From Escherichia coli (GTDB taxonomy: Bacteria; Pseudomonadota; Gammaproteobacteria; Enterobacterales; Enterobacteriaceae), in NCBI RefSeq assembly GCF_051903065.1, contig NZ_CP178438.1: 64,000 nt of DNA; one strand, given 5' to 3'. Below are positions 51,001-54,000 of this stretch, piece after piece (the first letter of the stretch is position 1; the number at the start of each line of letters is the position of its first letter). The position numbers were made by a program.

Positions 51001-54000
51001 ACGGAAGTTACGGTTGATTTCGAATACACGCTCGAAGCCACCGACCACCAGACGCTTGAGGTACAGTTCCGGCGCGATACGCAGGTACATGTCGAGATCC
51101 AGCGCGTTATGGTGGGTGATAAACGGACGCGCAGCGGCACCGCCAGGGATCACCTGCATCATCGGCGTTTCAACTTCCATAAAGCCGCGGTTCACCATGA
51201 ACTGGCGAATACCAGAGAGGATCTGCGAGCGCACTTTAAAGGTGTTGCGGGATTCATCGTTAGAGATGAGATCCAGATAACGCTGACGATAGCGCACTTC
51301 CTGATCCTGCAAGCCGTGGAATTTGTCCGGCAGCGGACGCAGTGCTTTGGTCAGCAGACGCAGCTCGGTGCAGTGGATAGACAGTTCGCCGGTTTTGGTT
51401 TTGAACAGTTTACCTTTCGCGCCGAGGATGTCGCCGAGGTCCCATTTTTTGAACTGCTCGTTGTAAACGCCTTCCGGCAGATCGTCACGGGCAACGTACA
51501 GCTGAATGCGGCCACCCACATCCTGCAGGGTAACGAAAGACGCTTTACCCATAATACGGCGGGTCATCATGCGGCCAGCAACGGCAACTTCGATGTTCAG
51601 CGCTTCCAGTTCTTCGTTCTCTTTACCGTCGAATTCTGCGTGCAATTGGTCAGAGGTATGATCGCGACGGAAATCGTTCGGGAAGGCAATCCCCTGCTCG
51701 CGCAGGTTCGCCAGCTTCTCACGACGCGTTTTCAGTTCATTGTTAAGATCGACTACCGCGTCAGCGCCCTGTGCGTGTTGTTCAGACATGTTGGTTCCTC
51801 ATAACCCTGCTTTCAAACTTGCTTCGATAAATTGATCCAGGCTGCCGTCCAGCACGGCCTGCGTGTTGCGGGTTTCTACCCCGGTACGCAGATCTTTAAT
51901 GCGGGAGTCATCAAGGACATAAGAACGAATCTGGCTGCCCCAGCCGATGTCGGATTTATTGTCTTCCATCGCCTGTTTCTCGGCATTTTTCTTCTGCATC
52001 TCCAGTTCATAAAGCTTCGCTTTCATCTGCTTCATGGCCTGGTCTTTGTTCTTGTGCTGGGAACGGTCGTTCTGGCACTGAGTCACGATCCCGGTCGGGA
52101 TGTGAGTAATACGCACCGCAGATTCGGTACGGTTAACGTGCTGACCGCCCGCGCCGGACGCGCGATAAACGTCAATGCGCAGATCCGCCGGATTGATTTC
52201 GATATCGATATCGTCATCAACTTCCGGGTAAACAAACGCGGAGCTGAACGACGTGTGGCGACGACCGCCGGAGTCAAACGGGCTCTTACGCACCAGGCGG
52301 TGAACGCCAGTTTCTGTACGCAGCCAGCCGTAAGCGTAATCGCCGGAGATTTTGATCGTTACGGATTTAATACCCGCCACTTCACCTTCCGACTCTTCGA
52401 TGATTTCAGTTTTGAAACCACGCGACTCCGCCCAGCGCAGATACATACGCTCAAGCATGCTCGCCCAGTCCTGTGCTTCCGTGCCGCCAGACCCCGCCTG
52501 AATATCGAGGTAGCAGTCGGCGCTGTCATATTCGCCAGAGAACATACGGCGGAACTCAAGCTGCGCCAGTTTTTCTTCCAGGGCGTCGAGTTCAGCAACG
52601 GTTTCGTTAAAGGTTTCTTCGTCGTCAGCTTCTACAGCCAGTTCCAGCAGACCAGAAACATCTTCCAGCCCCTGTTTCATTTGGTCAAGGGTGTCGACAA
52701 CGGCTTCGAGGGAGGAACGCTCTTTACCCAGCGCCTGTGCGCGTTCGGGTTCGTTCCAGACATCCGGCTGTTCCAGCTCGGCGTTTACTTCTTCCAGACG
52801 CTCTTTCTTGGCGTCATAGTCAAAGATACCCCCTAAGAACGTCGGAGCGTTCCGTGAGGTCCTGAATGCGATTATTTACCGGATTAATTTCAAACATGGT
52901 CTGATTTCTTTTCTTGAGCTAGTCAAAATGCGGTGATAAGAGCGGGATTGTACCCAATCCACACTCTTTTTTATAGAGAAGATGACGCTAAATTGGCCAG
53001 ATATTGTCGATGATAATTTGCAGGCTGCGATTGCCGCGAAACTCGTTGATATCAAGCTTATAAGCCAGTTGCACTTCGCGCACGCCGTTATCCGGCCAAA
53101 GGGCGGTATCAACGTTAAAGGCAATGCCGTCCAGCAGCGGGCCGCCGCCGACCGGTTCAACCATGACCTTCAAATGGCGCTCGCCCACCAGTCGTTGTTG
53201 CAGAAGGCGGAAATGACCGTCAAACAGCGGTTCCGGGAACATCTGTCCCCACGGGCCAGCATCGCGCAGTAACTGCGCCACTTCCATGGTCATTTCGGCC
53301 GGGCTTAACGGACCGTCTGACACCACTTCGCCTTGCAATAGTGAAGGGTCCAGCCACTCAGTCACCAGTTCGCCAAAGCGTTGCTGAAAGAGTTCGAATT
53401 TATCCTCTTCCAGTGACAGCCCGGCCGCCATTGCATGGCCGCCAAACTTAAGCATCATACCGGGGTAGAGCGTGTCCAGCCGCTCCAGCGCATCGCGCAT
53501 ATGCAACCCCTGAATGGAACGACCAGAACCTTTCAGCGTACCGTCGCCCGCAGGGGCAAAGGCGATAACCGGACGGTGAAAACGCTCTTTGATACGCGAT
53601 GCCAGAATGCCAACAACGCCCTGATGCCATTCAGGGTGATACATTGCCAGCCCGCCGGGTAGCGTGTCACGGCTGCGCTCCAGTTTCTCGCACAGGGTCA
53701 GGGCTTCAACCTGCATTCCTTGTTCGATCTCTTTTCGCGTCTGGTTTAGCGCATCGAGTTCATTTGCCAGCACGCGCGCTTCGCCGATGTTGTCGCACAG
53801 CAACAGTGCCACACCAACGGACATATCATCCAGTCGCCCGGCAGCATTGAGACGTGGCCCCAGCGCAAAACCTAAATCGCTGGCGGCGAGTTTTTGTGCA
53901 TCACGGTTGGCCACTTCCAGCAGCGCTTTAATCCCCGGACGGCACTTTCCGGCACGGATGCGACTCATCCCCTGCCACGTCAGAATGCGATTATTAGCGT

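Follow-up and report, generated by a model that had tools for sequence, protein, structure and literature searches.

The gene for release factor 2 (RF2, of class I), prfB, raises a simple question in this Escherichia coli genome: how is a full-length protein made from a reading frame that closes at its 26th codon? The DNA analysed here, called the window throughout, is a stretch of 64,000 nt, and prfB lies complete on its minus strand. The initial annotation had noticed AGGGGG-TAT-CTT-TGA-C at codons 22-26, had taken it as an intact programmed +1 frameshift cassette through which RF2 synthesis is autoregulated in this strain, and had added that some lineages carry a non-frameshifting prfB and that a single-frame annotation would miscall the gene as truncated. 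The strand read and the codon table agree in placing the 16-mer, AGGGGGTATCTTTGAC, at 52834..52819 on the minus strand, where codons 22-26 read AGG GGG TAT CTT TGA and are followed by a C at 52819. The in-frame UGA at codon 26, whose absence had been named as the refuting observation, is present. The features of the locus are collected in the table.

Table. Features of the prfB locus, with positions numbered along the window
Feature	Position	Strand	Basis
prfB, complete, 1,099 nt; 365-aa RF2 via +1 shift	51799..52897	(-)	joined translation
ORF0, 25 sense codons and UGA at codon 26; ATG at 52897..52895	52820..52897	(-)	ORF list, codon table
+1-frame ORF, from GAC (Asp26, 52821..52819) to UGA stop (51801..51799), 340 codons and stop	51799..52821	(-)	codon table
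Codons 22 (AGG) and 23 (GGG)	52834..52832; 52831..52829	(-)	codon table
Codons 24 (TAT), 25 (CTT) and 26 (TGA)	52828..52826; 52825..52823; 52822..52820	(-)	codon table
SD-like element AGGGGG, internal, codons 22-23	52829..52834	(-)	strand read, codon table
Spacer UAU, 3 nt (codon 24; in the E site while the P site holds CUU)	52826..52828	(-)	codon table
Slippery run CUU-U, overlapping the stop	52822..52825	(-)	codon table
RF2-specific in-frame stop UGA (codon 26), sensor of RF2 concentration	52820..52822	(-)	codon table
C just 3' of UGA, shared with GAC (Asp26) as its third base	52819	(-)	codon table
Predicted hairpin GGAACG-CUCCGA-CGUUCU, -5.8 kcal/mol; tentative accessory feature outside the established cassette	52836..52853	(-)	folding
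Codon 246, Ala, 'B-type' RF2 allele (Thr in K-12)	52159..52161	(-)	codon table, alignment
lysS (lysine--tRNA ligase), start 9 nt past the prfB stop	50272..51789	(-)	ORF list, annotation
Terminator-like hairpin after lysS	50253..50232		scan

Every cis element of the cassette is found in its canonical order and at its canonical spacing, the SD-like element standing 3 nt before the slippery codon and 6 nt before the stop. Even with a tolerance of two mismatches the 16-mer has a single match in the window, where chance predicts 0.01 (at most two mismatches, 100 dinucleotide-preserving shuffles of the window), and the looser pattern GGGGG-N3-CTTTGA has the same prfB site as its sole match in the window. 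[quoted passage not shown] The role of the SD-like element in the prfB shift has been described, UGAC is a weak termination context, and the slip is a re-pairing of peptidyl-tRNA-Leu from CUU to UUU; altering the SD, the slippery run or the stop context reduces prfB frameshifting (PMC12421855). The site is the textbook prfB programmed +1 frameshift site in its modal form, and as such it is already known.

The product is recovered when the T at 52822 is skipped: the join of 52897..52823 and 52821..51799 is 1,098 nt long, that is, 365 codons and a stop. The check that had been proposed, conceptual translation with a +1 shift at CUU-UGA followed by comparison with the E. coli RF2 protein, gives the 365-aa RF2, with the RF2 tripeptide SPF at 205 and GGQ at 250. 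This joined product is identical to solved E. coli RF2 (PDB 1GQE and others) at 363 of 365 positions over residues 1-365, and the alignment runs through the Leu25-Asp26 junction without a gap. The product's score with the NCBIfam model TIGR00020 prfB is 525.5 bits (cut-off 370), and RF1 models score it below their cut-offs. The +1 frame contains neither ATG nor GTG nor TTG from the upstream TAA (52878..52876) to the GAC, so that residues 26-72 can only be made by shifting, and full-length RF2 is reachable in no other way. The earliest +1-frame start codon in the ORF list is Met73, an ATG at 52680, and for this reason a mechanical ORF list returns two ORFs, of 25 aa and 293 aa, in place of one of 365 aa, just the single-frame miscall that had been foreseen. 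In RefSeq, the identical DNA has a CDS in two pieces, noted as a 'programmed frameshift', and the K-12 gene, b2891, is given as a joined CDS too. The genes around prfB are ordered dsbC-recJ-prfB-lysS-idi, and the SD of lysS (GAGGA) overlaps the prfB stop. Upstream of prfB, a consensus scan for sigma-70 promoters finds none. At the Rfam gathering cut-offs, the whole window yields one tRNA only and no frameshift element family, and none is expected because the signal is linear and unstructured.

Within E. coli, the site is nearly invariant. Of 5,426 complete E. coli genomes, 5,425 contain the 1.4-kb prfB region, and several clinical isolates match it at 100% identity. A 34-mer that takes in the cassette with 16 nt before it and 2 nt after it has matches in 5,418 of these 5,426 genomes, 5,416 of them exact. 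When the 34-mer is moved 7 nt downstream it matches in 998 genomes only; this count was rejected as a sign of variation in the cassette, since a synonymous TAT/TAC SNP breaks the 28-mer seed of megablast. The SNP is the Tyr27 polymorphism, 3 nt past the cassette, and because it adjoins the invariant block it shows that neutral variation exists right next to the conserved sequence. An in-frame junction, CTT-GAC with one T missing, occurs in two genomes, those of O157:H7 SS17 and SS52, both on the TAC background; the E. coli genome search found no in-frame CTT-GAC on the TAT background of the window. Another O157:H7 genome, PV15-279, has an intact frameshift site. SS17 and SS52 are super-shedder isolates compared in one paper, in which the table of SS52 against SS17 contains 129 frameshift differences, 56 of them from homopolymers (PMC5552260); the reads of SS52 came from an Ion Torrent PGM, and their assembly was guided by a reference and curated by hand (PMC4395050). 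The in-frame prfB of SS17 and SS52 is probably a sequencing artefact, and the view that the two represent a real lineage without autoregulation was set aside in the light of the Ion Torrent platform of SS52 and the list of homopolymer frameshifts.

The same arrangement is found far outside the species. The exact 16-mer occurs at no fewer than 120 species loci; among the 120 listed, an RF2-like +1-frame ORF follows it in at least 112, and most of the remaining eight are truncated where the locus ends. Among the loci listed, which include prfB of Gamma- and Betaproteobacteria, Bacteroidota, Nitrospirota and others, identity of RF2 to the E. coli protein ranges from 43% to 99% with a median of 70%, and identity at the wobble positions flanking the 16-mer falls to 13-50%. 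Because these loci were picked by the 16-mer itself, its conservation in them is not counted as evidence. An unbiased set comes from a protein-based scan of metagenome contigs, which gave 80 RF2 loci. In 77 of them the gene needs a +1 shift, with a TGA overlapping the first +1 codon, and three are in frame. All 77 frameshift-type genes have an SD-like block of the GGRGG type with a 3-nt spacer, and all 77 have TGA as the stop; 76 carry CTTTGA as the slippery sequence, and the remaining one carries TTTTGA. The exact 16-mer of E. coli is the commonest variant (22 of 77), and others are CGGAGG, CGGGGG and AGGAGG-CAT. In a published survey, a shift is needed in 64% of 12,753 species, TAG is never the premature stop in 8,164 species, Actinomycetota and Mycoplasmatota lack the motif, and the consensus across Bacteria is AGGGGG-N3-CTTTGA-C, which the window matches exactly and without any difference (PMC12421855). 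The remark that some lineages are non-frameshifting therefore holds between phyla, where 64% of species need the shift, but not between strains of E. coli, 5,416 of 5,426 of which carry the exact site. The qualifier 'in this strain' adds no information, because the cassette is near-universal in E. coli and is not a strain polymorphism.

An interrupted frame can also mean that prfB is a pseudogene, or that a gene really in frame has acquired the extra T through faulty sequencing or assembly. A mechanical ORF list does give the appearance of a broken gene, and SS17 and SS52 are two E. coli assemblies without the T. However, exactly the same 'broken' layout is shared by nearly all complete E. coli genomes and by 77 of 80 unrelated metagenome RF2 genes; the in-frame assemblies are outliers, that of SS52 coming from an indel-prone platform; and the shift is accompanied by a conserved SD-like block, spacer and slippery run, none of which a random frameshift mutation would have. 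The likelihood of damage or error is negligible. Nor is there more than a minimal chance that the locus makes two independent products without recoding, a 25-aa peptide and a truncated RF2 begun at the ATG at 52680 (Met73). That ATG is indeed the earliest start codon of the +1 frame, but residues 26-72, which are encoded in this frame ahead of any start codon, are conserved across phyla, and the solved E. coli RF2 chains, aligned over residues 1-365 without a gap, contain them.

It is nearly certain, then, that the E. coli RF2 gene has here its autoregulatory programmed +1 frameshift site; no feature of the sequence speaks against this, and the interpretation given in the initial annotation is supported. 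In the proposed mechanism, translation would initiate at the ATG at 52897 and 25 codons would be read, bringing CUU (Leu25) into the P site and UGA-C, a weak stop recognized only by RF2, into the A site. With RF2 plentiful, termination at the UGA would free a 25-residue peptide. With RF2 scarce, the ribosome would pause for longer, and the duplex between AGGGGG and the anti-SD, formed 3 nt upstream at an unusually short spacing, would destabilize the tRNAs in the E and P sites. The peptidyl-tRNA-Leu could then slip from CUU to UUU, so that GAC (Asp26) would enter the A site and translation would go on in the +1 frame, completing the 365-aa RF2. Overall, these steps would constitute a negative feedback loop.

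The +1 frameshift site of E. coli K-12 prfB was reportedly described by Craigen & Caskey 1986 and is reviewed in PMC12421855. The prfB sequence of K-12 (b2891) is identical to that of the window from the ATG through codon 26 and beyond, and the 5' leader is the same except for two SNPs. The gene order recJ-prfB-lysS-idi and the gene length of 1,099 nt are also shared. The two genes differ at 20 nt, 18 of them synonymous and none in codons 1-26, the nearest being TAC in K-12 for TAT in the window at Tyr27 (52816). At the K-12 site, which is nucleotide-identical, frameshifting occurs and its efficiency drops with rising RF2 (PMC5373646, PMC12421855). Slipping, its efficiency and the feedback would be expected in the present strain from these experiments, and the case for autoregulation is strong because codons 1-26 and the leader match K-12, the two leader SNPs apart, and shifting in K-12 has been measured.

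The proteins differ at two residues, Thr99 and Ala246 in the window being Ala99 and Thr246 in K-12, and the prfB of the window is a non-K-12-type allele. RF2 with Ala246 is the canonical, more active form. When shifting at the native K-12 locus was measured by ribosome profiling, it amounted to about 28% in the presence of K-12 RF2 and to about 21% where the Ala246 'B-type' was present (PMC5373646). Since the window encodes Ala246, a lower frameshift set-point (about 21%) would be expected here.

Upstream of the cassette, the predicted hairpin of the window ends 1 nt before AGGGGG, and its own z is weak (-0.75 to -1.18). Inspection by eye indicates that many diverged prfB sequences can form a small hairpin 5' of AGGGGG with different bases. 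In the set selected by the 16-mer, a register-free test gives -5.7 kcal/mol for the upstream 20 nt, against -2.2 for other windows of the same genes. Synonymous-codon resampling was also applied to this set (n=101), with amino acids and per-gene codon usage held and the native 21 nt scored. The native sequences score -6.0 against -3.3, a mean z of -1.39, this and the other z statistics for the hairpin being ones that ignore kinship among genes. The lowest decile contains 48% of the native sequences and 10% of 606 control windows, for which z is about 0. GC content is unchanged by the resampling, so composition does not explain the bias. The typical hairpin has about 6 bp and a 6-nt loop, and in 84 of 97 hairpin-forming sequences 0-2 nt separate the end of its 3' arm from AGG. 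The effect is specific to this position, as z stays at -0.45 or above in every window of the next 60 codons, and it is retained in a de-replicated set of 46 representatives with less than 75% identity (z -1.55). A set of 401 internal SD-like motifs from 383 other ORFs shows no hairpin bias (z -0.03). Among the independent metagenome genes, z is -1.52 for those of AGG type, whose cassette begins with AGG (n=38), and 0.01 for those of CGG type (n=38), which have a similar GC; the in-frame genes of this set, intended as the negative control, number three. Within the literature covered, which lay outside subscription journals, two papers devoted to prfB make no mention of such a hairpin. These biases hint that AGG-type prfB, including that of E. 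coli, may carry a selected accessory hairpin that refolds behind the paused ribosome beside the SD:anti-SD helix and tunes the shift, a proposal that we regard as tentative and rather unlikely to be correct.

A stronger role for structure would be that the shift is driven or set mainly by local mRNA folding, as with the stem-loop of dnaX, and not by the SD-like element and stop competition. The 101-nt region around the site does fold somewhat better than its shuffles (z -2.3), AGG-type prfB genes have the synonymous-site bias towards a hairpin just described, and artificial upstream hairpins can stimulate a +1 shift at CUUUGA by E. coli ribosomes in vitro (PMC6321510). However, RNAalifold predicts no pairs in 112 ungapped prfB sequences, the hairpin bias is absent from the 38 CGG-type genes, which also frameshift, and is weak in E. 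coli itself, and the literature credits the SD, the slippery run and the stop context (PMC12421855). Two downstream helices were considered as conserved structure and rejected: the E. coli MFE register pairs in 66.6%, against 64.5% in shuffles, and the helices are maintained no better than column composition gives. A downstream stimulator of the dnaX kind was rejected on the RNAalifold result and the lack of maintenance of these helices. A dip in folding energy near +84 nt was also discarded, as it is gone under synonymous-codon control (z -0.45), and it is attributed to protein-level constraint. Control mainly by mRNA structure is improbable, and the SD-like element together with competition at the stop is the preferred account. 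The E. coli dnaX -1 frameshift has in common with prfB that the recoding takes place in an essential gene and that an internal SD-like element precedes the slippery sequence. In dnaX, however, the shift is -1 on A AAA AAG, a downstream stem-loop is needed, two functional products are made and no stop codon is sensed, whereas prfB shifts by +1 in response to a slow UGA, and conserved structure downstream of its site was looked for and not found.

The prfB site is a textbook example of bacterial +1 recoding and its occurrence in E. coli is expected, so that annotation hygiene is the sole consequence of the finding as it was first given. Annotators have to enter prfB as a joined CDS and mark the ribosomal slippage, or else an essential gene looks truncated, and an in-frame prfB in an assembly should raise the suspicion of a homopolymer error. 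The Ala246 allele terminates better than K-12 RF2, which is relevant to any use of the strain in stop-codon suppression or recoding. The hairpin bias 5' of the SD-like block, if real, would provide an extra tuning element for a system thought to be fully described.

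In prfB genes whose frameshift cassette begins with AGG, synonymous sites favor a hairpin of about 6 bp, the 3′ end of which lies 0-2 nt ahead of the SD-like block. The mean z score, in which native folding is compared with synonymous-codon resamples, is about -1.5 in two independent samples, the prfB loci chosen by an exact 16-mer (L004-L123) and the AGG-type members of the 80 metagenome RF2 loci from a protein-based scan (L124-L203). The bias is absent from cassettes beginning with CGG (z about 0), from control windows and from the internal SD-like motifs of other genes. In the E. 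coli prfB gene of the window, where a hairpin is also predicted, the signal is weak.

Codons 1-26 of prfB form a fully invariant block, and the first variable position after them is in the Tyr27 codon (window 52816, minus strand), a synonymous TAT/TAC polymorphism 3 nt beyond the cassette. TAT, the window allele, occurs in about 998 of 5,426 complete E. coli genomes, while TAC is found in K-12 and the majority of the rest. Thr246 is unique to the RF2 of K-12. Residue 246 in the window is Ala (52159..52161, minus strand), the canonical and more active form of RF2 (PMC5373646). Residue 99 is Thr (52600..52602, minus strand), in contrast to Ala99 in K-12 and the PDB sequences.

RF2 is the sole reader of UGA stop codons. 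The prfB gene itself terminates at UGA, followed by G, and the stop is overlapped by the SD sequence (GAGGA) of lysS, which starts 9 nt 3′ of it. Therefore, the RF2 level could also influence termination, and possibly coupling, at the prfB-lysS junction. On the recJ side, the consensus promoter scan found no promoter for prfB. The 90-bp recJ-prfB intergenic region contains a 16-bp near-perfect palindrome, GGATTGGGTACAATCC (52945..52960), which was called terminator-like on the plus strand and holds a -10-like hexamer, TACAAT, on the minus strand.

Coordinates of features in the window and of the matching junctions in SS17 and SS52
Feature	Position	Strand	Remark
tRNA-Gly (anticodon CCC)	15779..15852	-	Rfam / ARAGORN
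Antisense ORF, 387 aa	50641..51804	+	opposite lysS
prfB-lysS junction	51780..51810	-	
Antisense ORF, 334 aa	51832..52836	+	opposite prfB
Predicted hairpin in prfB	52836..52853	-	
In-frame junction, SS17 (prfB locus L003)	NZ_CP008805.1 3830547-3830580		matches window 52825..52822 by homology
In-frame junction, SS52	NZ_CP010304.1 3793970-3794003		matches window 52825..52822 by homology

Neither Rfam nor ARAGORN detected any RNA gene besides tRNA-Gly across the 64-kb window, and the two antisense ORFs are most likely shadows of the coding strand, not genes. The recJ-prfB-lysS region is without a match in one of the 5,426 genomes, and one genome has its match on a plasmid-labelled record.

Two of these genomes, those of the O157:H7 super-shedder strains SS17 and SS52, carry CTT-GAC, with the slippery run one T short. 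The missing T puts the gene in-frame, and the SS17 annotation shows prfB as one uninterrupted CDS. For SS52, the sequencing platform was Ion Torrent PGM (PMC4395050), and homopolymer frameshifts are numerous in the authors' SS52 comparison table (PMC5552260). The in-frame prfB of both strains is probably an artefact; if true, it would represent a natural loss of RF2 autoregulation.
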